Shown: positions 48,914-63,589, counted from the stretch's first letter. The stretch is DNA of 64,000 bases from Thermoanaerobaculia bacterium (GCA_035278895.1 DATEIO010000954.1:104-64103); one strand, 5' to 3'. The notes: a model not told the origin generated them from the letters alone. Numbers and translations are program-made.

Positions 48914-50568
48914 AGCTGGTTCATATTCTCCTGCGGTACTCGCGCGGTGCGGCGCTCCTGGCCATCGCTGCGGGGTGCCTGTCGGGGCTCGCGGGCACCG
49001 GGCTGCTCGCGGTGCTCAACAGCGCCATCCACCGGTCCGCCCAGGGCACCCCGGGAGATCTGCTGCTGCCGTTCCTCGGGCTTGCCGGGCTCTTCGCGGC
49101 GTCCCGGCTCCTCTCCGGCTACCTCCTCGACCGGGTCAGCCTGAGCACCGTCTTCGGCCTGCGGAGCCAGTTGAGCTGGGACATCCTGGGTACGCCGCTG
49201 AACCGGCTCGAGAGCATCGGCTCCCATCGCCTCACGGCGGTCCTGACCTCAGACATCAGCAGCATCGCAGGGGCGCTCCAGCGATTGTCTCCCCTGTGCA
49301 TCAACTTCGCGATCCTGCTCGGCGGCCTCGCCTACCTGGGGTGGCTCTCCTGGAAGGTTCTGCTGCTGGTGGTGGTCATCCTGCCGTTCGGCGTGGTGAC
49401 CTATCAGCTCCCGAATCTGCGGGCCCGCAGCCGGCAACGGCAGGCGCGCGCGGTGACCGACCAGGTCTTCGAGCACTACCGTGGAGTGACCGAAGGAGCC
49501 AAGGAGCTACAGCTCAACCGGCGGCGGCGCCATGCGTTCATGACCCGGCTCGACGAGGCGGGGCGGCTCTTCCAGAAGCTCCGCATCGAGTCGCTGACCC
49601 TCTTCCGGATCGCCTCGACCTGGGGACAGCTCTTGTTGTTCCTCCTCATCGGCACCCTGGTCTTCTTCCTGGCCCGGACGATCGGGCTGCCGCAGGCCAC
49701 GGTCACCGGGGCGGCTCTGGTGCTGCTCTACATCCTCAATCCTCTGCAATCGCTTCTCGACGCCCTGCCCGACCTCGCTCAGGCCGCCGTGTCCCTGGAA
49801 AACGTCGAGAAGCTCGGCCTCTCGCTCGCGCGGACCCGGGGAGACCACGCCGCCGAGCCCGAGCCCATCCTGCCCGTCGCCGCCCTGGAGCTCCGCGGCG
49901 TCCGCTACAGCCATCCGGGCGAGGAGGAGATCGGGTTCAGCGTGGGGCCCATCGACCTGCGGCTCGAGCCTGGCGAGCTGGTGTTCGTGACCGGAGGCAA
50001 TGGCAGCGGCAAGACCACCCTGGCCAAGCTGATCACCGGCCTCTATACGCCGGTCGAGGGGCAGGTCCGGTTGAACGGCCGGGTGATCACCCCGGAGACT
50101 CTGGAGTGGTGCCGCCAGCACGTCTCCGCCGTCTTTGCCGACTTCTACCTCTTCCGCGAGCTTCTGGGGCTCGGCCAGGGCGCCGCCTTCGCGGGCGTCC
50201 AGGATCTGCTGACCCGTCTCCAGCTTCGCCACAAAGTACGGATCGAAGACGGCTCGTTCACCACCTTGAGCCTGTCGCAAGGGCAGCGCAAACGCCTCGC
50301 CCTGCTCACGACCTGGCTGGAAGACCGCCCCCTGGTGCTGTTCGACGAATGGGCCGCCGATCAGGATCCCGTGTTCCGGGATTTCTTCTACACCCAGGTG
50401 TTGCCGCAGCTCAAAGAACAGGGGAAGACCGTGGTCGTGATCTCTCACGACGACCGCTATTACGGGATCGCCGACCGCGTCCTGAAGCTCGACCAGGGGG
50501 CCCTTCTGAGCGAAGAGAGGGTGAGGGAGCCGAGGATCGCCATAGCCGCCCGGGGAATGGCGGGATGA
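48910..50568 (+). CDS. Cyclic-peptide/siderophore-type ABC exporter (fused TMD-NBD; SyrD/PvdE/YojI-like)
   Basis: ATG 48910 overlaps the NRPS stop (ATGA, 48910-48913). The N-terminal half is hydrophobic (MKLVHILLRYSRGAALLAIAAG...). NBD motifs: Walker A GGNGSGKTT, signature LSQGQRKRL, Walker B LVLFDEWAADQD, H-loop ISHDD. The track's upstream extension (48763) lies inside the NRPS. Confidence 0.9.
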   Translation: MKLVHILLRYSRGAALLAIAAGCLSGLAGTGLLAVLNSAIHRSAQGTPGDLLLPFLGLAGLFAASRLLSGYLLDRVSLSTVFGLRSQLSWDILGTPLNRLESIGSHRLTAVLTSDISSIAGALQRLSPLCINFAILLGGLAYLGWLSWKVLLLVVVILPFGVVTYQLPNLRARSRQRQARAVTDQVFEHYRGVTEGAKELQLNRRRRHAFMTRLDEAGRLFQKLRIESLTLFRIASTWGQLLLFLLIGTLVFFLARTIGLPQATVTGAALVLLYILNPLQSLLDALPDLAQAAVSLENVEKLGLSLARTRGDHAAEPEPILPVAALELRGVRYSHPGEEEIGFSVGPIDLRLEPGELVFVTGGNGSGKTTLAKLITGLYTPVEGQVRLNGRVITPETLEWCRQHVSAVFADFYLFRELLGLGQGAAFAGVQDLLTRLQLRHKVRIEDGSFTTLSLSQGQRKRLALLTTWLEDRPLVLFDEWAADQDPVFRDFFYTQVLPQLKEQGKTVVVISHDDRYYGIADRVLKLDQGALLSEERVREPRIAIAARGMAG

Positions 50569-50647
50569 GTGGGAAGCGGTTTACCCCGGCACGGGAAAGG
50601 AGTTACCCGAAGGCCGGTATTTTCAAGGGGTTGCGGCGCCTCCGGCC

Positions 50648-50663
50648 TGGCACTTGCCTTGCT
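50648..50663 (+). promoter_or_regulatory. Sigma54 (-24/-12) promoter element TGGCAC-N5-TTGCT
   Basis: The sequence TGGCACttgccTTGCT has exact GG-N10-GC spacing. It sits 80 nt after the exporter stop and 114 nt before the ADOP permease ATG, on the same strand. Confidence 0.55.
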
Positions 50664-50776
50664 CAATCGTCTTCGCGAGGTTGAGCATGAGCTGGCAAAC
50701 GCCCGCGAACGAAGCAGAACCTCGCGAGTTGGAATGAGTGGCTGATGACAGCCACGGAGAACCAGGAGACATCGCC

Positions 50777-53233
50777 ATGGAATTCTTCATCCAAGATCTT
50801 CGCCTCAGCGCGCGCACGCTGGCCAAGAGCCCTGTGTTCACCACGATGGCGGTGTTGACACTGGCTCTTGGGATCGGTGCGAACGCCGCGATTTTCAGTT
50901 TTTTCAAGTCGACCGCGCTCCACCCTCTGCCGTTTCCCGGGGCCGAGCGCCTGGTGAACGTTCACGGGACCGTGGTGCGCGATGGGAAAGAGGAGGTGCG
51001 CGGGGCTTCGTACCCCGACTTCCAGGACTGGGCCGCGCAGACGCGGTCCGTCGAATCGATCGCGGGCTTCAGCCGGGAGGCGTTCAACCTGGTGGGGGAG
51101 GGGAGCGCCGAGCGCGTCGAGGTCGACATGGTGACGCCCGACTACTTCCGCGTCTATGGGTTTGCCCCGCAGATCGGCCGGACCTTCCGGAAGGAGGAGA
51201 ATCAGACGCCCAACGGAGCGCCGGTGGCCGTCCTCAGCCACCGCCTCTGGCAGCAGCGCTTCGGCGCGGACCCGGGCGTTCTGGGGCAGACCCTGATCCT
51301 GAGCGGTGTGTCGCTTCAGGTGATCGGCGTCATGCCGGAGCGCTTCCGGGGCTCCTGGGGAGACACCGATCTCTGGATCCCGGTCCGCAAGGCCGCGGAT
51401 CTGATGCCGAACCGCGCGCCCAGGGTCTTCGAGAGCCGGGGCTCGCGCTGGCTGGACGTCGCCGCCCGTCTCGCTCCCGGAAAGACCGCGGATGAGCTGC
51501 AGTCGGAGATGACCGCGATCTCGAGCCGGCTGGCGCAGGAGTATGCGGACACCAACGCCGACCGTGCCGCCAAGGTCGTCCCTCTCGAGGAGGACCTGCT
51601 GGGCGAGGTCCAGGGGACGTTCCGGCTGCTGTTCGGCGCCGTGGGCCTGGTCTTGCTGATCGCATGCACCAACGTGACCAACCTGCTCATGGCGCGGACA
51701 ACGAACCGGCGCAAGGAGGTGGCCATCCGGGCGGCCATTGGCGCGCCACGCAGCCGTCTGGTGCTGCTGGTGGCGGCCGAGACTCTCCTGCTCGGGATCC
51801 TGGGCGGGATCGTGGGGCTGGGAGTCGGGAGGATCGGGGTCGCCCTGCTGCAGCGGTACAGCCCTCTCGAGCTCCCCGAATACGTGGAGGTGGGGGTCGA
51901 TCCGGTGGTGTTCGGGTTCGCCCTCGTGCTGTCGCTCCTGGCCGGGCTCCTGCTGGGCCTCCTGCCGGCCGCGCAGGTGATCAAGACGGACCTGACCGGC
52001 ACCCTCAAGGACGCCCGCGGGGCGGCGCAGGAGGGGCTCGGCGGCTTCCGCCGCCTGCGCTCGCAGAACCTGCTGGTCGCCGCCGAGGTGGCCATCGCCG
52101 TGCCGGTCCTGATCGGGGCCGGTCTGGTGCTGCAGAGCTTCCACCAGCAGCAGTCGGTCAAGCCGGGGTTCTCGAGCGAAGAGCTGCTGACCTTCCAGGT
52201 GCACCTCCCCCCCGGCGTCTATCCCGAGGAGAAATCGATCGCCATGGTCCAGCGGCTCCACGAGCGGGTGAAAGCGCTGCCGGGAGTGGACACGGTGGCC
52301 CTGGCTTCCGACCTGCCCCTGGGCGGGGGCTCGCGCGCGCGGCTGATCGGGATCGAGGATCAACTGGCGCGCGATCCCGAAAGCGAGGTCCGGGTCTACG
52401 AGCACCTGGTGAGCCCCGAGTTCTTCGCCGCCACCCGGATTCCTCTCCTGCAGGGGAGCGGCTTCACGCCGCACGCGCCGGGCCAGCCGTCCCAGGAGGT
52501 GATCGTCAGCAAGGCGCTCGCCGAAGAGGCCTGGCCCGGCCAGAGCCCCCTCGGCAAGCGGATCGTCAACGGCGAGAACAAGTGGGTCGTCGTGGGCGTG
52601 GCAGGAGACGTCCGCTACCGGTCGCTCCTGCCGGATCCGGAGGGGAACCCGGACGACCCGGACGTCTATCGTCCGATCCTGCAGACCGGCGTGGCCAGCC
52701 TGGGGGTGATCGTGAAGAGCCAGTCCGACCCGGCCGCGCTCACGAATCAGGTGCGGCAGGCGGTGCGGGAGCTCGATCCCGCGCTGCCGGTGTTCGAGAT
52801 CACGACCCTGCAGCAGGCCGTGGCGGAAGAGACGGCCCTGGGCCGGTTCAGCTCGCTGCTGTTCGGGCTGTTCGGAGCCCTGGCGCTGTTCCTGATCGGG
52901 ATCGGCATCTACGGAGTGACGAACTACTCGGTGTCGCAGAGGAGACGGGAGATTGGCATTCGGATGGCGATCGGTGCGCGTCCGGGACAGGTGTTGATGC
53001 ATGTGTTGCGGGAGGGGCTCTGGATCACTCTGCTCGGGTTGGGCCTGGGGCTCTTCGCCGCTTACGCGTCGACGCGCCTCCTGCAGAACATCCTGTTCGG
53101 AGTGAGCGCCACCGACGCCCTCACGTTCGTGGCGGGGGTTCTGATCGTTCTCGCCCTGGCCCTCCTCGCCTGCTATGCCCCGGCGCGCCGCGCCTCGCGC
53201 CTGGACCCGCTGCTCTCGCTCAAGCAGGAGTAG
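50777..53233 (+). CDS. ADOP-family duplicated FtsX/MacB-type ABC permease (no cognate ATPase adjacent)
   Basis: ATG 50777 gives MEFFIQDLRLSARTLAKSPVFTTMAVLTLALGIGANAAIF, the characteristic N-terminus of this family. The 818-aa protein has two FtsX-like 4-TM blocks, each preceded by a large periplasmic domain. GGAGAC lies upstream of the ATG. Confidence 0.85.
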   Translation: MEFFIQDLRLSARTLAKSPVFTTMAVLTLALGIGANAAIFSFFKSTALHPLPFPGAERLVNVHGTVVRDGKEEVRGASYPDFQDWAAQTRSVESIAGFSREAFNLVGEGSAERVEVDMVTPDYFRVYGFAPQIGRTFRKEENQTPNGAPVAVLSHRLWQQRFGADPGVLGQTLILSGVSLQVIGVMPERFRGSWGDTDLWIPVRKAADLMPNRAPRVFESRGSRWLDVAARLAPGKTADELQSEMTAISSRLAQEYADTNADRAAKVVPLEEDLLGEVQGTFRLLFGAVGLVLLIACTNVTNLLMARTTNRRKEVAIRAAIGAPRSRLVLLVAAETLLLGILGGIVGLGVGRIGVALLQRYSPLELPEYVEVGVDPVVFGFALVLSLLAGLLLGLLPAAQVIKTDLTGTLKDARGAAQEGLGGFRRLRSQNLLVAAEVAIAVPVLIGAGLVLQSFHQQQSVKPGFSSEELLTFQVHLPPGVYPEEKSIAMVQRLHERVKALPGVDTVALASDLPLGGGSRARLIGIEDQLARDPESEVRVYEHLVSPEFFAATRIPLLQGSGFTPHAPGQPSQEVIVSKALAEEAWPGQSPLGKRIVNGENKWVVVGVAGDVRYRSLLPDPEGNPDDPDVYRPILQTGVASLGVIVKSQSDPAALTNQVRQAVRELDPALPVFEITTLQQAVAEETALGRFSSLLFGLFGALALFLIGIGIYGVTNYSVSQRRREIGIRMAIGARPGQVLMHVLREGLWITLLGLGLGLFAAYASTRLLQNILFGVSATDALTFVAGVLIVLALALLACYAPARRASRLDPLLSLKQE

Positions 53234-53279
53234 CTGGACGCGGGAGGCCAGAGCCACAGCCAGGGTATGATCCTGGTTG

Positions 53280-54544
53280 ATGCTAAAGCGGCTCGAGCGG
53301 CTCGTCGGAAGGTGGTGGAGGCGCAGGCGAGTCGACCGCCGCGCCTTCCAGGAGCTGGGCCGCTCGCTCGCGCTGATCGTCGACCGCGAGGCCTTGAAGT
53401 CGAGCGTGGCCGCGCGCATCCGCGAGCTGTTCGATCCGGACCGGCTCATCGTCCTGGAGCCCGACCTCGGAGAAGCCGTGTTCCAGCCCGGCTTCTCCTT
53501 CGGCCTCGATCCGGCCGAGCTCGAAGGGGTCGAGCTCCCCGCCCGCGGCAAGCTCGCGCGCTGGCTCACGGTCAACGAGGTCTCCTTCGTCCGCGACCGT
53601 CAGTCGGGGGTTTTCGACTATCTCGATCCGGCAGAGAAGGACCTCTTCGACCGCTTGCGGGTCACGGTCGCGGTCCCCATGGTCTCGCTCAACCGCATGA
53701 CCGGGATCCTTCTCCTCGGATGGGACCAGTCAGGGCGCCAGTTGCTCGGGAGCGACCTGGAGCTGCTGCAGCTCCTGGCCTCCCAGGCGAGCCTCGCCTT
53801 CGAGAACGCGGCCCTCTACCGCGCGCAGCAGGAGCGCCTCGACCGCCTCCACCGCGCCGAACGCCTGGCTGCGGTCGGTCAGCTCGCGGCCGGCGTAGCC
53901 CACGAGATCCGCAACCCGCTGACCGCGATCCGTTCGACCATGCAGTACCTCCTCCAGGGCCTCGACCCTGCCGAGCCGCGCCATCAGCTCGTCGCCGAGA
54001 TCCTGAGCGAGGTCGACCGCATCAACGGCACGGTCGGCGGGCTGCTCAGCCTCAGCCGGGCCGGCGAGGTCCATCTGACGGAGACCGATCTGACCGATCT
54101 GGTGTCCACGTCGATCCATCTGGTCCAGGCCCGCGCGGGAGAGCAGGGGGTCGTTCTCGAAGCCCGCCTCGGCAGCGAGCCGCTGCGCGTCCTGGCCGAC
54201 GCCGGTCAGCTCAAGCAGGTCTTTCTCAATCTGCTCTTGAACGCTCTGCAGTCCATGCCCGGTGGTGGCCGGATCACCGTCACCGCGTCCCCCTGGCGTT
54301 CGCCGCTCGGGGGCGGGCAGCGCTGGGCCCAGGTCCGGATCGCCGATACGGGGCCCGGAATTCCCTCCGACCAGCTCCGCCATATCTTCGACCCCTTCTA
54401 TACGACCAAACGGGAAGGCACTGGTCTGGGGCTCGCCATCTGCTACGGTATTGTCGAGAGGCACCAGGGGGAGATCCAGCTGGAGAGCGAGCTGGGAAAA
54501 GGGACCACGGCCTCTGTCCGACTGCCGCTCGCGGAGAAAAAAGC

Positions 54545-54560
<16 letters not shown>
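53280..54560 (+). CDS. Soluble sensor histidine kinase (GAF-like N-terminal domain, HisKA, HATPase_c)
   Basis: H-box AHEIRNPLTAIRST. N/G boxes LNLLLNALQSMP, IADTGPGIP, GTGLGLAICYGIV. No hydrophobic TM segments. The track start is TTG 53277; ATG 53280 is the next codon. Confidence 0.85.
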
Positions 54561-55951
<1,391 letters not shown>

Positions 55952-55963
55952 CCTCCCGGTCTT

Positions 55964-56686
55964 TCAGCGCGCGGTCAGCCCGCCGCGCATGTAGTCGAGA
56001 TAGAGGCGCTCCAGGTCCTCATAGCGCAGCTCCTCCCGGCTGCGGACGAGGACCTGCCGCCCCTCCTGGAGGATCCCCATGCGGTCGGCGATCCGGCGTA
56101 CCCAGACCAGGTCCTGCAGGGTGACGAGCAGCGCCTTGCCGCGGTCGCGCAGGGTCTCGATCAGCTCGACGAGCTCGGCGGCGGCCTTGGGATCGAGCCC
56201 GGAGAGCGGCTCGTCGAGCACCAGGGCGGAGGCGTCCTTGACCAGAGCCACGGCCATGCCGACCTTGCGGACGGCGCCGGGACCGAGATCCACCAGGCAC
56301 TGATCGAATGCCGCCTCGGGGAGCCCGACCTCGCGCAGAGCCATCTCGCAGCGGTCCCGCAGCATCGGACGGCCGCACCCTAAGCTGGCGAAATATTCGA
56401 GGTTCTGGCGCGCGGTCAGGCGATCGTAGAAACCCGTACCACTGCTAAAGAACGCGACCCGCCGCTTTGCGGCGAGAGGCTCCCGGTCCACGTCGATCCC
56501 ATCGATCAGGCAGTGGCCGGCGGTCGGCCGGGTCAGGCCGAGGAACAGGTCGATCACCGTGGTCTTGCCGGCTCCCTGGGCTCCGACGAGACAGTAGATC
56601 TCCCCGGCCTGCACTTTCAGATTCAGAGCATCCAGGGCGAGCCGGCCGCTCGGATAGCGCTTGCTGAGATCGATGGCTTCGATCAT
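55964..56686 (-). CDS. ABC transporter ATP-binding protein (ABC-2 type) with degenerate Q-loop, signature and H-loop
   Basis: Walker A GAQGAGKTT and Walker B LVLDEPLSGLD are intact. The signature reads LGPGAVRKV instead of LSGGxxQR, the Q-loop region reads FFSSGTGFY (no Gln), and the H-loop position reads TLQDL (Gln for His). Confidence 0.8.
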   Translation of the reverse strand: MIEAIDLSKRYPSGRLALDALNLKVQAGEIYCLVGAQGAGKTTVIDLFLGLTRPTAGHCLIDGIDVDREPLAAKRRVAFFSSGTGFYDRLTARQNLEYFASLGCGRPMLRDRCEMALREVGLPEAAFDQCLVDLGPGAVRKVGMAVALVKDASALVLDEPLSGLDPKAAAELVELIETLRDRGKALLVTLQDLVWVRRIADRMGILQEGRQVLVRSREELRYEDLERLYLDYMRGGLTAR

Positions 56687-56690
56687 CGGG

Positions 56691-58151
56691 TCACCCGGGC
56701 TCGGAGCGGTAGAAGACGAACAGGGTCGCTCCCAAAAGACCCAGGGTCTCGAGCGCGAACATCAGCAGGGCCGGACCGGCGGCCGTGAAGCCTTCGCGCA
56801 TGGAGCTCTCACGGAAGGTGAAGCGAGGGAGGTCGTCCGGCTGGACCGGCCGGCCGGACATGTAGCCGCGGAAGAAGAGCAGATGCGGGCTCGCCGGGTC
56901 CGCGGCATCGAGCGCCCGGACCCGTTCCGCGAGTTGGGAGTGGAAAGCCGCGGCTTGGTCGAGGAAGGAGTGCTCGCGCCACCGTCCGGCGCCGGCCAGG
57001 CGTTCCGCGATCTGCTGGACCAGAGAGAACGGGGAGGCGGCCGCGAAATCGTCCGCCAGGTGCGCCTGCTCCAGCTTTCGGTCCAGCTCCTCCTGCCGGA
57101 TCCGGTCACGCAACGCGGCGCGCCGATTCTCGGCCCGGGCCGAGATCTTCTCCCAGGCATAGTCGTCCGCCACGGCCCACTGAGGGCGCCGCCAGCGTCC
57201 CTGCAGGCCACCGAGCTCGCGATCGATCCGGGCGCTGGCTTCGGCCATGCGCTGCGCGATCTCCTCTTCCTCTGGAACCGGCCGCAGGACATGGGCGAGC
57301 AGGAGAGCGAGCGCCGGGATCACCACCACGCCCGTGATCCAGAGCAGGGCCAGAGCGCCCAGACTGGTGGACGGATCGCGCGTGAGCGACGACACCAGCA
57401 GCGCCGCCAGGATGAAAAACGCCGCGGCCCAGAGACCCAGGAGCACCACGAGCCCGGCCTTGACGAGATCCGTGGAGGTCAACCGGAGCCCCCCCAGGCC
57501 GGTGGCCAACGCCAGGCTCAGAGCGGCGCCAGCCATCAGGGGAACTGCCAGACAGGCCCAGGCGGCGAGGAATTTGCCCGCCAGCACCTTCCAGCGCGGG
57601 ATGGGGCAGGAGAGGAGGAGGCGCAGCCTCTCGCTCCGGCGCTCCTCGCAGATCGCGTCGTGACAGAGCAGGAAGGCGCCGATCGAAAGGACGATTCGGA
57701 TGGCGAACATCCAGTCGATTGGCACGGTACGGGGCAGAAGCCTGGAGTCGCCGCGGGTGCTCCGGATCTCGGGTGTAATCAGCGCGCTCAAGGCCTGCAG
57801 AGAGGCGTCGGGGGTCACGGACTGCCCGCCGTCGACTACCAGGGCGAGACGCCAGGGCGCCTTGAGCGCGGGATGGAGGATCTCGACGGCGCTGTCCAGA
57901 GAGATGCCGGAGATCTGACGCTCGTAGGCTTCGAGAACGGCGGCGCGCTCAGCGGATTCGAAGCGGTGGCGGGCCGCGGCGGTCACGGCCGCCAGACCCA
58001 TGAGGATGATCAGCAGCAGCGCGGGAGCCCAGAACCGGAGGCTGCCCGCCGCCCTCCGGACGTCATGGCGGAGGATGGTCCCCACCACGGTCACCCGCCT
58101 CGTCTCCAGGGGCCGGGGAACCAGAAGAGAGCCGTCCTCCCGGCCGATCAT
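56691..58151 (-). CDS. ABC-2 family transporter permease with large C-terminal soluble extension
   Basis: The start ATG (58151-58149 on the minus strand) overlaps the upstream stop (ATGA). MIGREDG...RFWAPALLLIILMGLAAV is followed by six or so hydrophobic helices, then a ~200-aa soluble tail. The track's 132-aa N-terminal extension overlaps the upstream gene and is Arg/Pro-rich junk. Confidence 0.75.
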   Translation of the reverse strand: MIGREDGSLLVPRPLETRRVTVVGTILRHDVRRAAGSLRFWAPALLLIILMGLAAVTAAARHRFESAERAAVLEAYERQISGISLDSAVEILHPALKAPWRLALVVDGGQSVTPDASLQALSALITPEIRSTRGDSRLLPRTVPIDWMFAIRIVLSIGAFLLCHDAICEERRSERLRLLLSCPIPRWKVLAGKFLAAWACLAVPLMAGAALSLALATGLGGLRLTSTDLVKAGLVVLLGLWAAAFFILAALLVSSLTRDPSTSLGALALLWITGVVVIPALALLLAHVLRPVPEEEEIAQRMAEASARIDRELGGLQGRWRRPQWAVADDYAWEKISARAENRRAALRDRIRQEELDRKLEQAHLADDFAAASPFSLVQQIAERLAGAGRWREHSFLDQAAAFHSQLAERVRALDAADPASPHLLFFRGYMSGRPVQPDDLPRFTFRESSMREGFTAAGPALLMFALETLGLLGATLFVFYRSEPG

Positions 58152-59749
58152 GCGAGGAGCTCCCTGCGGAAGAGGGAGAGGGAGAGGGCCCCGGCGGCAG
58201 CATTGAGGGCGAGCAGGACGAACGCTTCGAAAGCGCCATCCTGGAGACTCGCGAGCAGGCGGGGGCTCGGGGCGTGGAAACGCGGCAGATCGTCCAGCCG
58301 CAGTCGCTGCGACGGATCGTGCTCCCGGGCTTCGAGATCCCGCCGGACCTGTGCGGCCACCTGCGGGTCGCTGAAGCGGCTGAACAGGCTTTGAGCATTG
58401 GTCTCGCTCACGTCCTCGGGAGCGAGACCCAGGAAGCGCGGCCAGGGAGTGAGGCTCTCCGGACGGTCGTCCGTGAACCAGCGCCAGGACGCGAAGGCGT
58501 TCTTGCGCTCGAGATAGCGGATAAGCTCGAGCCGATAGCTCCGGCAAGCCGCAAGGAACTGCTCGTGCTCCGCGAGCGACGTCCCGGCCAGGGACTCCGA
58601 CAGGCCATCGAGCAGAGCGGCCGGGGAGAGCGCGGCGACCCCGGCCGCAAACCGCTCGCTGCGACGCTGTCGCGCCTGGATCTGCTGCTGCACGGCGAAA
58701 ACCTCGCCGGCATAGCGCATCCCTTCCCGTACCTCGAAACGGAAGTAATCGCTCAAGGCGTCGTAGTAGGCCGCGGAGCCGTGGCGGTACCGCACGGCCC
58801 CATGAGCCCGCCCGGAAAAGTTGACTGCCGTGTGTCCGCTGAACGTCGCGAGGAGCGGCTCGCTCCGAAGCTCCGCGGCGAGCCGCTCCTCATGCCGGGC
58901 GGCCATCCGCTCCTGCTGTGCCCGGGCGGCCCGCTGGCCCTCCCGGATGCCGGCCAGGTCCTCTGCCGTGGCCCAGACCGCGCCGGGCAGGAGCAGGATG
59001 AAAGTCAGCCAGACGATGACCGAGGCCGTCAGGGCTGTCGACGGGCTGCGCCTCCCCAGCGAAACGACGAGCCCCACCAGGAACATCAGGCAGAGATAGG
59101 CGACGTAGACCACGGTGAGGGCGGCGATGCGCAGCCAGTGGCCGGCCGTCAGCTCTGCCGTGGTCGCGAATCTCAGGATCGCGAGGCTCACCAGGAGGGC
59201 CCCGCCGAGCGGCAACGCCAGGGTCAGAATGCCGCCGAGGATCTTGCCGATCAACAGGGGCGACCGCCGGACTCCTTGGGCGAGGACTGCGCGGAGCATG
59301 CCGTTCTCCCGCTCACAGGTGACGGAATCGCCGGCGAGGAGCAGGGCCAGCAGCCCCAGGACGACCGTCACGATCGTGGTGAGGTCCAGAGCAGGCACGC
59401 CCACCAGAAGCTCATTGCCGCGATGGCCGCCGACGGCGACCGCGGGGACCGTGTAGACGTGGATCACGACCTCGGTGCCAAGGTGGGCATCAAACCCCTG
59501 GTCGAGAATGCTCAGCGGCTCGGGCGGACGTACCACCACGGGCTGCAGGTAGGAATAGACCGAAGCCCGCGACAGAGCCCGCGCGTGCTCGGCGACCTGC
59601 TCCCGCCAAGTGCGCAGGCGCAGGTCGTAGTCGCGTGCCGCGATCAGAGCGGACGACGCGGCGAGGAGGATCGCGAGGAACGCCCCGACCCGGAAGCGGA
59701 AGCCTGCCAGATGGTACTGGCACTCCTTGCGGATGATGGCGCGTAGCAT
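58148..59749 (-). CDS. ABC-2 family transporter permease with large C-terminal soluble extension
   Basis: MLRAIIRKECQYHLAGFRFRVGAFLAILLAA... It has multiple TM helices, including the ABC-2-like stretch SVTCERENGMLRAVLAQGVRR, and is a paralogue of the downstream permease. First gene of the minus-strand three-gene operon. Confidence 0.8.
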   Translation of the reverse strand: MLRAIIRKECQYHLAGFRFRVGAFLAILLAASSALIAARDYDLRLRTWREQVAEHARALSRASVYSYLQPVVVRPPEPLSILDQGFDAHLGTEVVIHVYTVPAVAVGGHRGNELLVGVPALDLTTIVTVVLGLLALLLAGDSVTCERENGMLRAVLAQGVRRSPLLIGKILGGILTLALPLGGALLVSLAILRFATTAELTAGHWLRIAALTVVYVAYLCLMFLVGLVVSLGRRSPSTALTASVIVWLTFILLLPGAVWATAEDLAGIREGQRAARAQQERMAARHEERLAAELRSEPLLATFSGHTAVNFSGRAHGAVRYRHGSAAYYDALSDYFRFEVREGMRYAGEVFAVQQQIQARQRRSERFAAGVAALSPAALLDGLSESLAGTSLAEHEQFLAACRSYRLELIRYLERKNAFASWRWFTDDRPESLTPWPRFLGLAPEDVSETNAQSLFSRFSDPQVAAQVRRDLEAREHDPSQRLRLDDLPRFHAPSPRLLASLQDGAFEAFVLLALNAAAGALSLSLFRRELLA

Positions 59750-59805
59750 GAGTACCTTTGGAACCGGTCAAGCTCGGCTTCTGAAGTCTATCAGCAAGTG
59801 CAGAA

Positions 59806-59821
59806 TGCAGCCTGCGTGCCA
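59806..59821 (-). promoter_or_regulatory. Sigma54 (-24/-12) promoter element, minus strand: TGGCACG-N4-CTGCA
   Basis: The reverse complement of 59806-59821 is TGGCACgcaggCTGCA, with exact GG-N10-GC spacing. It lies ~57 nt upstream of the ABC-2 operon start (59749) in the correct orientation. Confidence 0.5.
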
Positions 59822-59868
59822 TGGCGGAGCCCTGGAGCCGCGGACGTTCGCCAGCCCGAGGGGGAAAC

Positions 59869-59899
59869 AGTTTACCCTGCTTTGAGTAAGAGTTTACCC
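59869..59899. promoter_or_regulatory. Direct repeat AGTTTACCC x2 (22-bp spacing) between divergent sigma54-type promoters; candidate activator site
   Basis: AGTTTACCC occurs at 59869-59877 and 59891-59899, 48-78 bp from the minus-strand -24 element and 54-84 bp from the plus-strand one. The core TTACCCAT recurs at 61638-61645, upstream of the third element. Confidence 0.3.
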
Positions 59900-59952
59900 A
59901 TTTTCCGAGGCTCTGCTCCTCGCCTCTTCCGGAAGGTTTCCTTTTCAGGACG

Positions 59953-59968
59953 TGGTCCGCCTCTTGCA
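59953..59968 (+). promoter_or_regulatory. Sigma54-like -24/-12 element TGGTCCG-N4-TTGCA
   Basis: The sequence TGGTCCgcctcTTGCA has exact GG-N10-GC spacing and lies 80 nt upstream of the radical SAM ATG (60048). The -24 box deviates from the CAC consensus. Confidence 0.4.
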
Positions 59969-60047
59969 AACTATCTGGTCGCCCAAGGCAAAACGAGATA
60001 GTTGGCTCGTCGAAACACAATCCGACTTCACTCCAGAGAGGTGCTCC

Positions 60048-61550
60048 ATGCTGCGCACGAGCAGTTATACGATCTTCGTCCATCTGCCCGGCAACGAACG
60101 AGAGATCCTGCTGGTACATGGTTATACCGGCGCCTATGACAAGGTCTCGCGGGAGGTGGCTGATTTCCTCCGCTCGCGCGAGGTCCAGGAGAGGGCCAGG
60201 CCCTTGTATGGCGAGTGGAGTCAGGAGCCGGAGCCCGTGGGGGCACCGGGATCTCCTTCGGAAGAGACGATCGATCTGTTGCGCGAGCAGGGCTATCTGA
60301 CCGAGCTCGCGCCGGAAGACGAAGAGGCCTTCTTCGGCCGCCTCGCCAACGCGCTCCATGAACGGGCTCTGCGCCAGGCCCCCAGCTATATCTTCATGCC
60401 CACCTATGACTGCAACCTGCGGTGCTCCTATTGTTATCAGGACCACATGCGTAACGATTGCAGCTTCCATCACCTGCTCCGCTCCATGCGGCCGGCCATG
60501 ATCGATCGCATCTTCGCGGCCCTGCCGCGGATCGAGAGGCTCCATGGTCTCGATCCGGATGCGTTCAGGCGGCGCAACGTCGGCCTCTTCGGGGGCGAGC
60601 CGCTGCTGGCGGCCCATCGCCCCGCCATCGAGCACCTCCTCCGCCGCACCTTTGAGCTGGGGGAGGCGGATGTCTGGGCGGTGACCAACGGCACCGAGCT
60701 CCAGGCCTACCGCGACCTGCTGGGCCCCGGTGGGATCGCGACTCTCCAGATCACGCTCGACGGACCGCCGCAGGAACACGACCGCCGCCGGATCTATGCG
60801 GATGGCACGGGCTCCTATGAGCGGATTGCGGCCAATATCACGATGGCCCTTGAACAGGGTGCCGCGGTCAGCATCCGTCTCAACGTCGATCGCAACAACC
60901 TCATGGATCTGCCGGCCGTGGCCGCCGAGATCGAGGCCCGCGGCTGGGATCGCCACCCCCGGTTCTCGGCCTACACCTCGCCCGTGCGGGGCGGCAATGG
61001 CAAGACCGATCCCAAAAGCGTGCTGAGCTCGTGGGATCTCGACCGGGAGCTGACGCGGATGCGCGAAGAGAATCCGCGCCTGGCAGGGCTGGCGCGCCCC
61101 GATGAGGCTCTGCGCGTCCGGGCGCGCCGGATCTTTGATGCGCCCGAATCCGTGCTGCCGAGCCTGCGGCCGAGTTTCTGCAGCGCGCACGACCGCATGT
61201 ACATCTTCGATCCTTTCGGAGACATCTACGCCTGCTGGGAGAAGACCGGAGATCCGGAGGTCCGGATCGGCCGCGTGCTGCCCGAGGGAGAGATCGAGCT
61301 CAAAGTCGAGGAGTCGAAGATGTGGCGCAGCCGCACGGTGGCGAGCAATCCGGTCTGCCGGCGCTGCCGTTACGCTCTCCACTGCGGCGGTGGCTGCGCG
61401 GTGCTCGCGTGGGCGGGAAGCGGGCAGTTCCATTCGAGCTATTGCGACGGCTTCGCCTCCCGCTTCAAGGCGAGCGTCGCCGACGCCTATCTGGCGCACG
61501 CTGCAGGAGCTCCCACCTCCGCACTCGGTAAAAGGGTCTGCGATCTCTGA
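60048..61550 (+). CDS. Radical SAM/SPASM-domain peptide-modifying enzyme
   Basis: ATG 60048 follows GAGAGGTG (the track start 59952 is an upstream extension). There is a ~100-aa N-terminal domain (SYTIFVHLPGNEREILLVHGYTGAYDKV...TIDLLREQGYLT). The radical SAM cluster motif is CNLRCSYC (YDCNLRCSYCYQ). The C-terminal Cys-rich SPASM region reads FCSAHD...DIYACWE...CRRCRYALHCGGGCAV. Confidence 0.85.
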   Translation: MLRTSSYTIFVHLPGNEREILLVHGYTGAYDKVSREVADFLRSREVQERARPLYGEWSQEPEPVGAPGSPSEETIDLLREQGYLTELAPEDEEAFFGRLANALHERALRQAPSYIFMPTYDCNLRCSYCYQDHMRNDCSFHHLLRSMRPAMIDRIFAALPRIERLHGLDPDAFRRRNVGLFGGEPLLAAHRPAIEHLLRRTFELGEADVWAVTNGTELQAYRDLLGPGGIATLQITLDGPPQEHDRRRIYADGTGSYERIAANITMALEQGAAVSIRLNVDRNNLMDLPAVAAEIEARGWDRHPRFSAYTSPVRGGNGKTDPKSVLSSWDLDRELTRMREENPRLAGLARPDEALRVRARRIFDAPESVLPSLRPSFCSAHDRMYIFDPFGDIYACWEKTGDPEVRIGRVLPEGEIELKVEESKMWRSRTVASNPVCRRCRYALHCGGGCAVLAWAGSGQFHSSYCDGFASRFKASVADAYLAHAAGAPTSALGKRVCDL

Positions 61551-61563
61551 TCCACGGCAGATT

Positions 61564-61586
61564 CCCCTTCGGTCATTCCGGAGGGG
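61564..61586 (+). terminator. Hairpin 14 nt after radical SAM stop (possible intrinsic terminator/attenuator)
   Basis: CCCCTTCGG-tcatt-CCGGAGGGG forms a 9-bp stem (one G:U pair) with a 5-nt loop. It is followed by a C/T-rich tract rather than a clean U-run. Confidence 0.35.
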
Positions 61587-61703
61587 CCTTCACCCTTCTC
61601 ATCAACCTTTTAAAAACTCTGGTCACCTGGTCAAGAATTACCCATCCTTGAGTCGTGGCTTACTCACGGAGAGGGTTTGAAAGGCTTTTTCCTCCAGACT
61701 GGC

Positions 61704-61719
61704 TGGTCTGCCCCTTGCA
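61704..61719 (+). promoter_or_regulatory. Sigma54-like -24/-12 element TGGTCTG-N4-TTGCA
   Basis: The sequence TGGTCTgccccTTGCA has exact GG-N10-GC spacing and lies 70 nt upstream of the 64-codon ORF. It matches the element at 59953 at 15 of 17 positions (TGGTCYGCCYCTTGCAA). Confidence 0.4.
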
Positions 61720-61788
61720 ATGATCACATTTCGTAGCAGGCACAAGTCGAATTGATCAAAGCTATCCGTATCGCACCAAGGAGAAGGA

Positions 61789-61983
61789 ATGAAGAAGAAC
61801 CGGGTTTTGCGAGATATGGCGTCTCTCAACCGTGCAGCCTTCCGAGTCGGAATCCAGGACCTTGGGAGTGGATCGCTGGAGGATCTTCTGGCAAAAGTGG
61901 TGGGCAGCCTGTCCGATCAACCCTCGGCGACCTGCACGGAATTCACCTGCAACCTGTACGCCCCTCCTCCTCCTGAGAGTTAA
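61789..61983 (+). CDS. Small ORF (64 aa), candidate RiPP precursor peptide for the adjacent radical SAM/SPASM enzyme
   Basis: AAGGAG lies at 61778-61783, 5 nt before ATG 61789. Translation: MKKNRVLRDMASLNRAAFRVGIQDLGSGSLEDLLAKVVGSLSDQPSATCTEFTCNLYAPPPPES. The N-terminal ~39 aa look like a helical leader; the tail is Cys/Thr/Ser/aromatic/Pro-rich (CTEFTC, PPPP). GC3 is about 64% in a region of ~49% GC. It sits 239 nt downstream of the rSAM gene on the same strand. Confidence 0.5.
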   Translation: MKKNRVLRDMASLNRAAFRVGIQDLGSGSLEDLLAKVVGSLSDQPSATCTEFTCNLYAPPPPES

Positions 61984-62149
61984 AATTTTTCCCAGCCGTA
62001 CGAAGTTTTCCCGCGCGCTGAAGCCCGCCGTGACTCCAGAGCCGCGGCGGCACCGCGCAGGATAGGGTCCTGTCTCGCCGCGAAACGCGGCGGAGCGCTC
62101 TCGACTTCGGCGGGCCCTCGCAAACCGTGATGGGACGCCCGCGCCCGAT

Positions 62150-62503
62150 TCGACGCGAAGTCTCGTCGCCGAGATCATCGTCCAGGGCCGCTTCGATCAC
62201 CGCGACCGCGCCGTCGAACGTCTCGTCCAGCGTCCGCGCGATCTCCTCGTGCTTGCGCTCGCGCATCTTGTCGCGCCGAAGGGCGTCGATGGCGCGCCGT
62301 TTGGCGAGGGCCATCAGCCAGGCGCCCGGATTGGCCGGAACGCCGATCCGCGGCCATTCGGACAGGGCAACGACCAGCGCGTCCTGCGCCAGCTCCTCGG
62401 CAAGGTCGACATTCCGCACCACGCGGACCAGGCCCGCGATGAGCCTGGCCCGTTCAATGCGAAAGGTCGCTTCGATCGCCCGGTGCGTCTCGCCTACGGT
62501 CAC
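62150..62503 (-). pseudogene. 3'-truncated ECF-type sigma factor (COG4941-like sigma-2 region only)
   Basis: The first ~115 aa (THRAIEATFRIERARLIAGLVRVVRNVDLAEELAQDALVVALSEWPRIGVPANPGAWLMALAKRRAIDALRR...ALDDDLGD) look like the N-terminal region of the long YCII-associated ECF sigma factors. After DDDLGD the expected RLRLIF/CHP region-4 sequence is absent in all three frames. The remaining track ORF is Arg-rich read-through into low-GC DNA that overlaps the small ORF. Confidence 0.45.
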
Positions 62504-62577: not shown

Positions 62578-62996
62578 TCAGGCGACGCCGAGCTTCCCGC
62601 GCGTCCCTTCACGGGGCGTCGCGAGCTCCTCGGGCGTCAGAAACTCGGCCAGATCCTCCGCCTCGAGGAACGGCCGGATCTCGATCTCGCTCCGGCCCGG
62701 CATGACATTGGGGGAGCGCATCGCCCAGGCCACGGCCTCGTCCATGTCCCTGACCTCCCAGAGCCGACGAACAGCTCGCGGGTCTCGGCGAACGGCCCAT
62801 CGATGACCGTGCGGCCGGGGCCCTCGCAAACGATGCGCTTGGATTGGGCGGAGGGCTTGAGGCCGGCGGCGGCCACCAGGACGCCGGCCTGGACCAGCTC
62901 CTCGGTGAATCGGTCCATCGCCTCGAACGCCTCGGGAGTGGGGGGAACGCTCTGTTCGCTGTCCTCAGTGGCTTTGGCGAATACCATGACCCGCAT
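62578..62996 (-). pseudogene. YCII/DGPF-domain protein gene with a frameshift near 62770-62785
   Basis: AAGGAGG precedes ATG 62996. MRVMVFAKATEDSEQSVPPTPEAFEAMDRFTEELVQAGVLVAAAGLKPS...VIDGPFAETRELF continues in another frame as LWEVRDMDEAVAWAMRSPNVMPGRSEIEIRPFLEAEDL... (track ORFs 62637..63122 and 62578..62829). This is either a real frameshift or a sequencing error. Confidence 0.5.
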
Positions 62997-63034
62997 TGTC
63001 TGCCTCCTTGTTTGAGACGGCCTTTTTTGGCCTC

Positions 63035-63589
63035 TCATTGGGGCGTCGAACGAGCTTGCCGGAAATCGACATCGTTCTGCGAACTTTGTTCGCCGCTGGC
63101 GCCTCCCCTTTTCGGCCCCCATTTCTCCAGGAACGCCAGGATCAGGTCCGGGACGTACTTGTCGTCCTTCATGAAGTCGTCCGGAGTCTGCGAGAGCAAC
63201 AGCGAGCCGTCCGATTCGAGGAGGAAGAGATGGGGGTAGGACGGGATCTCTGGATAGCGAGAAAGGAAGGCCTCGTTCTTTACCTTGTCGCTGAAGTTGA
63301 CCTTGACGACCACAAACCCGTCGCGCAGGCGTTGCGTCAGGCGCTCATCCTCGTGGATGACCTTGTTGAGAATGCGGCAGTAGATGCACCACTCGCCGCC
63401 AACCTCGAGAAGGATGCGTTTGTTCTCCCGCTGCGCCTGGGCGACCGCGGCCTTCAGGTCGGCGGCGGGGTCACGGGACTCGTCGTATCCGGCCGGGGGG
63501 AGCTTCGCTGAGCCTCCCGCGGCCCCCGCTGTCGTCGCCAGGGTCAAGAGCATGGCCGAGAGCAGCCGGAGAATCCTCGTCCGTTTCAT
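63035..63589 (-). CDS. Secreted thioredoxin-fold protein (WCxxC)
   Basis: AAGGAGG lies 6 nt before ATG 63589. Signal peptide MKRTRILRLLSAMLLTLATTAGAAGG; redox motif GGEWCIYCR; thioredoxin-like layout (ILLEVGG...VVVKVNF...PHLFLL). Confidence 0.75.
   Translation of the reverse strand: MKRTRILRLLSAMLLTLATTAGAAGGSAKLPPAGYDESRDPAADLKAAVAQAQRENKRILLEVGGEWCIYCRILNKVIHEDERLTQRLRDGFVVVKVNFSDKVKNEAFLSRYPEIPSYPHLFLLESDGSLLLSQTPDDFMKDDKYVPDLILAFLEKWGPKRGGASGEQSSQNDVDFRQARSTPQ

Follow-up and report, generated by a model that had tools for sequence, protein, structure and literature searches.

A radical SAM/SPASM enzyme and a 64-residue peptide as a candidate thioether-forming system under predicted sigma-54 control in soil Acidobacteria

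What is made at a locus where a radical S-adenosylmethionine (SAM) enzyme of the SPASM type is followed on the same strand by a gene for a mere 64 residues, and how is its production switched on? The question is raised by positions 60048-61983 of a 64,000-nucleotide stretch of DNA from a Thermoanaerobaculia bacterium (GCA_035278895.1, DATEIO010000954.1:104-64103; the whole stretch is called the window here), for which the original prediction had proposed a candidate system for a ribosomally synthesised peptide that is modified after translation (a RiPP). Soils contain large numbers of Thermoanaerobaculia and their acidobacterial relatives, most of which have never been grown in culture, and next to nothing has been explored of the peptide natural products that they make. 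Our analysis identifies the locus as an uncharacterised variant of the radical SAM/SPASM thioether-type RiPP systems, with a distinctive substrate rule and a sigma-54 enhancer regulon. That enzyme and peptide form a RiPP pair within a sigma-54 regulon we hold with high confidence; the complete explanation, in which pair, thioether rings, regulon and transporters all come together, is probably right, though we are less sure of it.

The peptide gene and its enzyme partner

The peptide gene (61789-61983, + strand) encodes a leader containing SLNRAAFRV and LEDLLAKVVG and a core ...SATCTEFTCNLYAPPPPES, in which the motif C49-T-E-F52-T-C54-N-L-Y57-A-P (61933-61965, +) holds two predicted C-x-x-aromatic units. 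The AAGGAG-N5-ATG start described originally is in place, with a strong ribosome-binding site at 61778-61783 and then 5 nt before the ATG, while the gap from the enzyme stop codon, given before as 239 nt, measures 238 nt. The GC content at third codon positions (GC3), formerly taken as coding-like, turns out to be uninformative: it is 0.64 in frame (0.81 in the enzyme gene), and because this is so close to the 0.62 of one of the other two frames (0.49 in the last) it cannot show coding. A collection of 5.8 billion proteins contains 21 homologues of the peptide. Their core reads C-T-x-F-T-C-N-x-Y-A-P-P-P-P, without any variation at C, F, C, N, Y, A and PPPP, and their leaders follow the conserved pattern MKK...LNRAAFRV...LLExLLAxVVG. 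Synonymous codons (TGC/TGT, TTC/TTT, TAC/TAT, four GCN and four CCN) encode the conserved residues in a set of 24 distinct DNA versions, and therefore selection acts on the peptide as a protein.

Both cysteines of the CTEFTC core singled out in the original prediction are invariant among the homologues. The PPPP tract, emphasised there as well, is invariant in most of the subfamily but is lineage-specific and dispensable, since it is absent in three of the loci described below (L020, L023 and L027). The proposed division of leader from core after VVG is plausible, but no true double-glycine site exists there, the residue after the invariant G39 being G, S or K. Export of the double-glycine/C39 kind was rejected on account of this variability and of the lack of a peptidase domain in the ABC-2 and MacB/FtsX transporters of the locus. 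The peptide, which by eye could not be assigned to a known precursor family, was matched by not one Pfam or NCBIfam model, and the peptides of sister clades give at most sub-threshold matches to CefA, FlmA or thiazolylpeptide models. A link to FlmE/OhkG was discarded, as these belong to unrelated orphan arginase pathways.

Are enzyme and peptide kept together in other genomes? Relatives of the enzyme mark 438 loci (one genome per species), of which the best 80 were fetched and their six-frame translations searched with a profile of the peptide family. Where enzyme identity is 69% or more, all 33 fetched loci contain, 20-250 nt downstream of the enzyme gene, a member of this peptide family with the core C-x-x-[FY]-x-C-x-x-[YF], and the small open reading frame (ORF) next to homologous enzymes, on which the original prediction hinged, is a conserved feature. 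Downstream of most enzymes at 50-66% identity come between one and three small peptides that contain Cys and whose cores are quite unlike this one. In leaders across the clades an E-I/M-x-S-L-N-x-x-x-F/L segment recurs with an L-D/E-x-R-L-E-L helix after it, and the window leader, 'DMASLNRAAFRV ... LEDLLAKVVG', is a variant of this pattern. In two distant relatives where no Cys peptide is obvious, the enzyme gene is followed by one for an M50/site-2-protease-like membrane protein that contains HExxH (L039:11528-12394 and L071:11500-12402).

The pair is itself part of a larger cassette, in the order kinase (+), activator (+), ABC ATPase (-), permease 1 (-), permease 2 (-), enzyme (+) and peptide (+), with order and spacing constant to within about 100 nt in all loci that have at least 69% enzyme identity and enough flanking sequence. 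The same cassette is found beside enzymes of 57-63% identity with different cores (L029, L031, L036, L051 and L088). In L085 (66% enzyme identity) it is reshuffled with all parts kept, including promoter and enhancer units, and the peptide, now divergently upstream of the enzyme, is still adjacent to it after the rearrangement. An adjacent, co-conserved ORF of leader-plus-core build is what distinguishes a RiPP precursor and its maturase, and, judged by this conservation, the enzyme and the 64-residue ORF are an uncharacterised RiPP pair of soil Acidobacteria. No publication on the enzyme or peptide family was found in the literature searched, in which subscription journals were thinly covered, and earlier work on a distant member is possible; literal core strings (CTEFTC, CIINW, CWANICG and others) gave irrelevant literature matches only.

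The enzyme (60048-61550, +; 500 residues) is identified by hidden Markov models (HMMs), alignment and an AlphaFold2 model as a radical SAM/SPASM peptide maturase with an N-terminal domain resembling a RiPP recognition element (RRE). The CNLRCSYC motif and the C-terminal multi-Cys SPASM region reported before are both there, and both domain HMMs score above their cut-offs: the motif C122-NLR-C126-SY-C129 goes with PF04055 Radical_SAM at 48.6 bits (cut-off 29.5), placing the enzyme in the radical SAM superfamily, and the complete seven-Cys SPASM motif (C378-x12-G-x4-C396, C437-x2-C440-x5-C446-x3-C450, C466) with TIGR04085 at 50.8 bits (cut-off 27), placing it in the SPASM subfamily. Both motifs are invariant in 20 homologues. 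The model consists of an N-terminal three-strand-plus-helices domain, the radical SAM barrel and the SPASM region; within residues 1-110 the strands 8-12, 19-24 and 30-34 are followed by helices, as in an RRE, and the N-terminus aligns with TigE from residue 14 and also with the N-terminal domain of CteB. The HMM scan of this domain gave no RRE or PqqD match. The C-terminus, V-C-D-L, has an invariant Cys498-Asp499 (20 homologues of 57-87% identity; residues 498-500 correspond to 61539-61547), and Cys498, which is not one of the seven SPASM cysteines, could serve an auxiliary cluster as a removable eighth ligand, in a region where the AlphaFold2 model is unreliable.

The best NCBIfam matches of the enzyme are all RiPP maturases for Cys-rich peptides: CefB (NF038107) at the top with 113 bits (cut-off 600), then TIGR04463 with 112 bits (cut-off 525) and PapB (NF047865) with 100 bits (cut-off 340). 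The SCIFF maturase model TIGR03974 gives 50.5 bits (cut-off 425), and YhhB and FxsB match weakly, at 57 and 51 bits. An enzyme of a non-peptide family, the pitfall that had been foreseen, is not what we find, with peptide maturases on top and the anSME, mycofactocin, MoaA and NirJ models far below cut-off. A sulfatase maturase was rejected (anSME at 48 bits against 349, and no sulfatase partner in any cassette), as were cofactor pathways, PqqE among them (MftC 35 against 265, MoaA 41 against 284 and NirJ 34 against 515 bits), and partner genes of the sulfatase, pqq or mft type occur in none of the cassettes. The closest solved structure by sequence profile is CteB (E 1.6e-14), which also comes first in Foldseek (E 3e-16, TM 0.55-0.65), followed by anSME, TigE, ChlB, SuiB and SkfB. 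CteB, of the SCIFF (thermocellin) system, forms thioethers and combines an RRE, a radical SAM barrel and SPASM, to which the RRE-like domain, barrel and SPASM region of the window model correspond in order, but it is only about 16% identical, and SCIFF peptides have six Cys, unlike the window precursor. When 1.84 billion cluster representatives were searched exhaustively, the result was 649 clusters at E<=1e-30, with more than 150 full-length at 215 bits or above; ten sampled distant relatives are likewise in no named family, and by these searches the enzyme belongs to a large unnamed one. The maturase-like enzyme and the conservation of the pair together support the candidate RiPP system as first proposed.

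The substrate rule and the predicted rings

What does the enzyme do to its substrate? We tabulated the residues around each Cys in 58 distinct cores of the enzyme family, and one position stands out. The residue at Cys+3 is F in 79 cases, N in 33, Y in 26, D in 10, L in 6 and H in 4, so that F, N, Y, D or H is found there in 92% of cases against a background of 23.5%, and the relative entropy reaches 2.0 bits, compared with at most 0.84 bits at other offsets. Another Cys occupies Cys+5 in 78 of 162 cases. The spacing from Cys to this putative acceptor is constant while the linker from acceptor to next Cys varies between 2 and 4 residues, and the cores begin with Cys, finish with an acceptor and contain equal numbers of both. 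Read in this way, the modular unit is C-x-x-(F/Y/N/D/H), repeated two to four times, and the window core has two such units, C49-T-E-F52 and C54-N-L-Y57. Elsewhere in the family, L043 and L045 have CxxF precursors of four units, and the cultured Ktedonosporobacter rubrisoli (L082) has CxxN precursors. The rule could be used for mining relatives and for designing peptide-stapling substrates. Three alphaproteobacterial relatives at 49-53% enzyme identity (L068:11550-11888 from Methylobacterium soli, L074:11558-11896 from Caulobacter, and L075:11553-11936) have precursors of 112-127 residues with no obvious leader and with 6-7 repeats of G-C-I/V-I/V-N/D/K-W separated by variable linkers, a multi-core form of a C-x-x-(N/D/K) unit in cultured organisms.

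Most likely the product is a peptide in which thioethers close two small rings, one between C49 and F52 and the other between C54 and Y57. In the mechanism that we propose, the leader of the 64-residue precursor would bind the N-terminal recognition domain of the enzyme by its S-L-N-x-x-x-F/L strand motif and L-E-x-L-L helix, and the enzyme would then join each core Cys to residue i+3 (C49-F52 and C54-Y57, -2 Da each). The outcome would be two in-line four-residue thioether rings, most probably attached at the beta-carbon (ranthionine) and less probably at the alpha-carbon (sactionine). A Cys-based thioether fits better than a carbon-carbon cyclophane because Cys is the sole universal residue, sister clades existing whose unit has no aromatics at all (e.g. 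CSGDGCSGNACSGNG). The beta-carbon is favoured over the alpha because all the acceptors (F, Y, H, N, D and L) have a beta-CH2, mostly beside a radical-stabilising group (benzylic or next to a carbonyl), whereas G, A, S and T, plentiful in the cores, are almost never found at Cys+3. We are fairly confident that the rings are Cys-based thioethers, while for the beta-carbon linkage specifically the odds appear to be about even. As the system is small (two genes plus regulators) it could be moved to a laboratory host, where the prediction is testable as -4 Da and rings C49-F52 and C54-Y57.

Known chemistry comes close to this proposal. PapB installs six in-line Cys-X3-Asp/Glu beta-thioethers (PMC9413430), and NxxcB forms an Asn beta-thioether (PMC9389541); a Cys-Phe/Tyr beta-thioether was not reported in the literature searched. 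The PapA/PapB system (freyrasin, a ranthipeptide) resembles ours in having a SPASM maturase, a leader-bearing precursor with repeated in-line Cys-Xn-acceptor motifs and a thioether crosslink of -2 Da each, and PapB is the best-scoring biochemically characterised family for the window enzyme. It differs in its Cys-X3-Asp/Glu spacing (PMC9413430), compared with Cys-X2-(Phe/Tyr; Asn/Asp/His in sister clades) here, in regulation and transporters, and in that the window enzyme has an extra N-terminal domain outside the PapB model. The 'Cys-every-fifth' CefA/CefB family (NF038108/NF038107) is similar in that family cores here have Cys at every fifth residue too, and precursors of a Ktedonobacteria sister clade match CefA weakly (E about 1e-3, 19 against a cut-off of 30), but the CefB score of the enzyme, as given above, is a fraction of its cut-off and the window peptide itself matches no model. 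No publication on the chemistry of CefA/B was found in the literature searched. Streptosactin (GggA/GggB) and NxxcA/NxxcB also have small unnested four-residue thioether rings made by radical SAM enzymes; compared by description rather than by sequence, these systems are streptococcal and regulated by quorum sensing, the NxxC acceptor lies upstream of Cys while in the window family it lies downstream, and streptosactin has an alpha-carbon link.

Streptosactin is also the model for the alternative that survives best, in which cassette and i to i+3 pairing are the same but the bonds run from S to the alpha-carbon, giving a type 2 unnested sactipeptide. Phe and Tyr are the classical sactionine acceptors in subtilosin and thuricin, and the structural matches include SkfB and folds of the CteB kind. 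Streptosactin itself has two in-line four-residue sactionine rings (PMC9389541). An alpha link, however, is independent of the side chain, and would not explain why Gly, Ala, Ser and Thr are avoided at Cys+3 and residues with a beta-CH2 dominate; the best-scoring characterised family, PapB, is moreover a beta-thioether enzyme. We consider the sactionine unlikely, at perhaps a minor share of the probability.

Two further possibilities are, in our opinion, less probable still, and equally so. In the first, the enzyme would make carbon-carbon cyclophanes of the three-residue type on aromatic-X-X motifs (F52-T-C54 and Y57-A-P59), with the cysteines structural or in a disulfide. F52 and Y57 are indeed conserved as aromatics, among structural matches the cyclophane synthase ChlB comes as the second family (PMC12912966) and the weak YhhB and FxsB matches point the same way. 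The invariance of both cysteines does not fit such a product, nor do the sister clades with Asn or Asp at Cys+3 and no aromatic in the unit (CSGDGCSGNACSGNG); Cys and Pro, as third residues of the motifs, would be unusual cyclophane acceptors, and thioether-family HMMs score about twice as high. In the second, the change would be of another radical SAM type, be it epimerisation, a cyclopropyl-type or ether bond, or a different thioether pairing (nested, or acceptor-x-Cys). The enzyme family has, after all, no name and differs by about 85% from every solved enzyme, and the fold matches include SuiB and the cyclopropyl synthase TigE. The F/N enrichment two residues before Cys also leans this way, but the constant C-x-x-acceptor spacing with variable linkers favours in-line i to i+3 rings, as do the matching counts of Cys and acceptor and the cores that run from one to the other. 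That the small ORF is no substrate at all, but a chance ORF or regulatory leader peptide with the enzyme acting elsewhere, an idea to which its unremarkable GC3 and a PPPP that might stall ribosomes (our own speculation) lend some colour, is effectively refuted by the 21 homologues with invariant core and synonymous codons at conserved residues, by adjacency in 33 of 33 clade loci and in the rearranged L085, and by the strong ribosome-binding site and predicted sigma-54 promoter of its own.

Several observations weigh against the proposal of two thioether rings made within a regulated cassette. The type of crosslink and the pairing are both read from sequence patterns, and the position at offset -2 from Cys is itself F/N-rich (55%), so an F-x-C reading is partly populated. 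The enzyme reaches no NCBIfam cut-off and is far under every named thioether-forming family, its structural neighbours after CteB include the cyclophane synthase ChlB and the non-RiPP anSME, and the AlphaFold2 model has only moderate overall confidence (pLDDT 72.8), with the SPASM region poorly predicted. The cassette contains no leader peptidase, the original prediction having seen none in the window, and the peptide has no conserved cleavage site. Finally, hydropathy predicts no membrane segment in the kinase, which is cytoplasmic.

Sigma-54 promoters, enhancers and the genes they would serve

How, then, would production of the peptide be controlled? Promoters of the -24/-12 type were searched with the strict pattern TGG-N8-YTGCW, for which we calculate about 0.03 chance matches per region. 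Between the enzyme gene and the ABC-2 operon two such elements point away from each other, TGGCACGCAGGCTGCA on the minus strand (59806-59821) for the ABC-2 operon and TGGTCCGCCTCTTGCA on the plus strand (59953-59968) for the radical SAM gene, with a tripartite enhancer common to both in between (59872-59899; TTACCC 59872-77, GAGTAA 59884-89, TTACCC 59894-99). A third promoter, TGGTCTGCCCCTTGCA (61704-61719, +), is dedicated to the precursor gene and is preceded by a degenerate copy of the enhancer (61638-61665; TTACCC 61638-43, GAGTCG 61650-55, TTACTC 61660-65). The fourth, TGGCAC-TTGCC-TTGCT (50648-50663, +), serves a MacB/FtsX permease gene 75 nt further on and lies about 40 nt past an enhancer copy (50581-50608; TTACCC 50581-86, GGGAAA 50593-98, TTACCC 50603-08) whose geometry matches that of the shared one. 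The consensus is TTACCC-N6-GRGTAA-N4-TTACCC, with starts of half-sites 12 and 10 nt apart in all three copies; each copy is 39-54 nt from a sigma-54 promoter, and no others exist in the window. A simple scan of 59700-62300 gave no sigma-70 promoters or intrinsic terminators.

These elements are conserved in other genomes. Every locus with at least 69% enzyme identity has a -24/-12 element 55-95 nt upstream of the enzyme gene, and for the opposite-strand promoter facing the ABC-2 operon about two-thirds of loci fit the strict pattern, while in an alignment the promoter lines up in 28 of 29. Among the 29 aligned intergenic regions the best-conserved block, TTTACCC-N6-GGGTAAC-N2-3-TTACCC, sits between the divergent promoters. 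The promoter of the precursor gene and its degenerate enhancer are present together only where the spacer between enzyme and peptide is long (the window, L001, L005 and L006), and the promoter is found also in distant cassette loci. With -24/-12 promoters, upstream enhancers and a cognate AAA+ activator all present, the predicted sigma-54 control of the cassette is strongly supported, and the original proposal of such control gains four promoters and three enhancer copies conserved across loci. As the circuit is unusually legible in this way, membership of the regulon can be assigned by sequence alone. Past the cassette, some relatives have extra units of TTACCC-type enhancer and sigma-54 promoter (L014:12651, L016:7001, L025:12963, L066:11986 and L073:15347); the small or secreted ORFs under these units are unrelated and show no shared theme, and the regulon has therefore lineage-specific extra members.

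The cognate activator (54545-55951, +) is an NtrC-type response regulator with receiver, AAA+ sigma-54 interaction (Sigma54_activat, 245 bits) and Fis-type helix-turn-helix (HTH_8) domains, and at 77-85% identity across cassette loci it is the most conserved gene of the cassette. It is preceded by a soluble histidine kinase of GAF-HisKA-HATPase architecture (53277-54560, +), assigned from Pfam, hydropathy and conserved position. On the opposite strand lie the ABC transporter ATPase (55964-56686, -), closest to the DrrA and lantibiotic-protection subfamilies, and two ABC-2 permeases with DUF3526 (56691-58151 and 58148-59749, both -). The original prediction had described this ABC-2 transporter, the kinase and the activator correctly but had overlooked the permease with the fourth promoter, a duplicated MacB_PCD/FtsX protein of 831 residues (50738-53233, +; Pfam) of the acidobacterial duplicated orphan kind. 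Many sister loci have a related MacB/FtsX permease directly behind the peptide gene, such permeases are encoded within the rearranged L085 cassette as well, and we regard the one in the window as a probable member of the regulon and candidate exporter. The recurrent tie suggests a role for this very large 'orphan' permease family.

We propose that the GAF-domain histidine kinase and the NtrC-type activator gate expression. The activator would bind the tripartite enhancer TTACCC-N6-GRGTAA-N4-TTACCC and fire four sigma-54 promoters, one for the enzyme gene, one for the precursor, one for the divergent ABC-2 operon and one for the MacB/FtsX permease, and the co-induced transporters would export the product and/or protect the producer, although the role of the ABC-2 transporter may be an unrelated one. 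Since kinase and activator genes follow the permease on the same strand after 43 nt, the MacB/FtsX promoter may read into them, making positive feedback possible. The arrangement recalls the LanRK/LanFEG logic of lantibiotics, where precursor, modification enzyme and an ABC-2-type transporter are induced together by a two-component system, and the window ATPase indeed matches the lantibiotic-protection ABC subfamily at 118 bits. The resemblance ends with the regulators: the window kinase is soluble with a GAF domain and not a membrane sensor of the mature peptide, and its partner is a sigma-54 enhancer-binding protein and not of OmpR type.

A more far-reaching generalisation can be offered only tentatively, and we think it has rather less than an even chance of holding in full: the whole enzyme family may install in-line bonds from Cys sulphur to the beta-carbon of Phe/Tyr (Asn/Asp/His in sister clades) from i to i+3, as a large unnamed RiPP class, with the acidobacterial sigma-54 circuit and MacB/FtsX exporters. 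If true, this unnamed class would take in the 438 genome loci, along with enzyme clusters that number in the hundreds at 50% identity, and would provide the first functional link for the acidobacterial 'orphan' duplicated MacB/FtsX permeases, as exporters.

Neighbouring genes

Upstream of the cassette the window contains a non-ribosomal peptide synthetase (NRPS) in one ORF of 9,897 codons (19220-48913, +), followed by a fused ABC exporter of 601 residues with ABC_membrane and ABC_tran domains (48763-50568, +). Because neither has a TTACCC enhancer, both are placed outside the sigma-54 regulon. The cassette is independent of them also because its geometry is rigid while its flanks are variable (an S8 peptidase in L002, the MacB/FtsX permease in the window and L001), and this synteny bears out the earlier view of a compact locus separate from the NRPS. 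Other clades of the enzyme family are without the cassette and have other partners, for example an Asp/Arg hydroxylase and a glycosyltransferase in L086.

At the right-hand edge an ORF of the extracytoplasmic function (ECF) sigma factor type (61943-62503, -) converges on the peptide gene and overlaps it by about 40 nt. It has sigma-70 region 2 alone (residues 20-79) and no region 4, and its C-terminal half does not look like a sigma factor; it may be truncated, which hints at insertion of the cassette at this point. A YCII-like gene (62637-63122, -) comes after it. The GC content within 61551-61983 is 50% in the spacer between enzyme and peptide and 58% in the peptide gene, compared with 66% in the enzyme gene and 70% in the whole window. 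Just past the cassette of four other loci (L005:12061-12216, L010:11880-12044, L012:11856-12014 and L034:11853-12014), and absent from the window, is a second, conserved small-peptide family with the consensus MMDNVLSLQ[ML]LG...C.SNVSC.SN.SC...W, whose LSLQxLG leader and Ser/Cys-rich core resemble those of class III lanthipeptide precursors.

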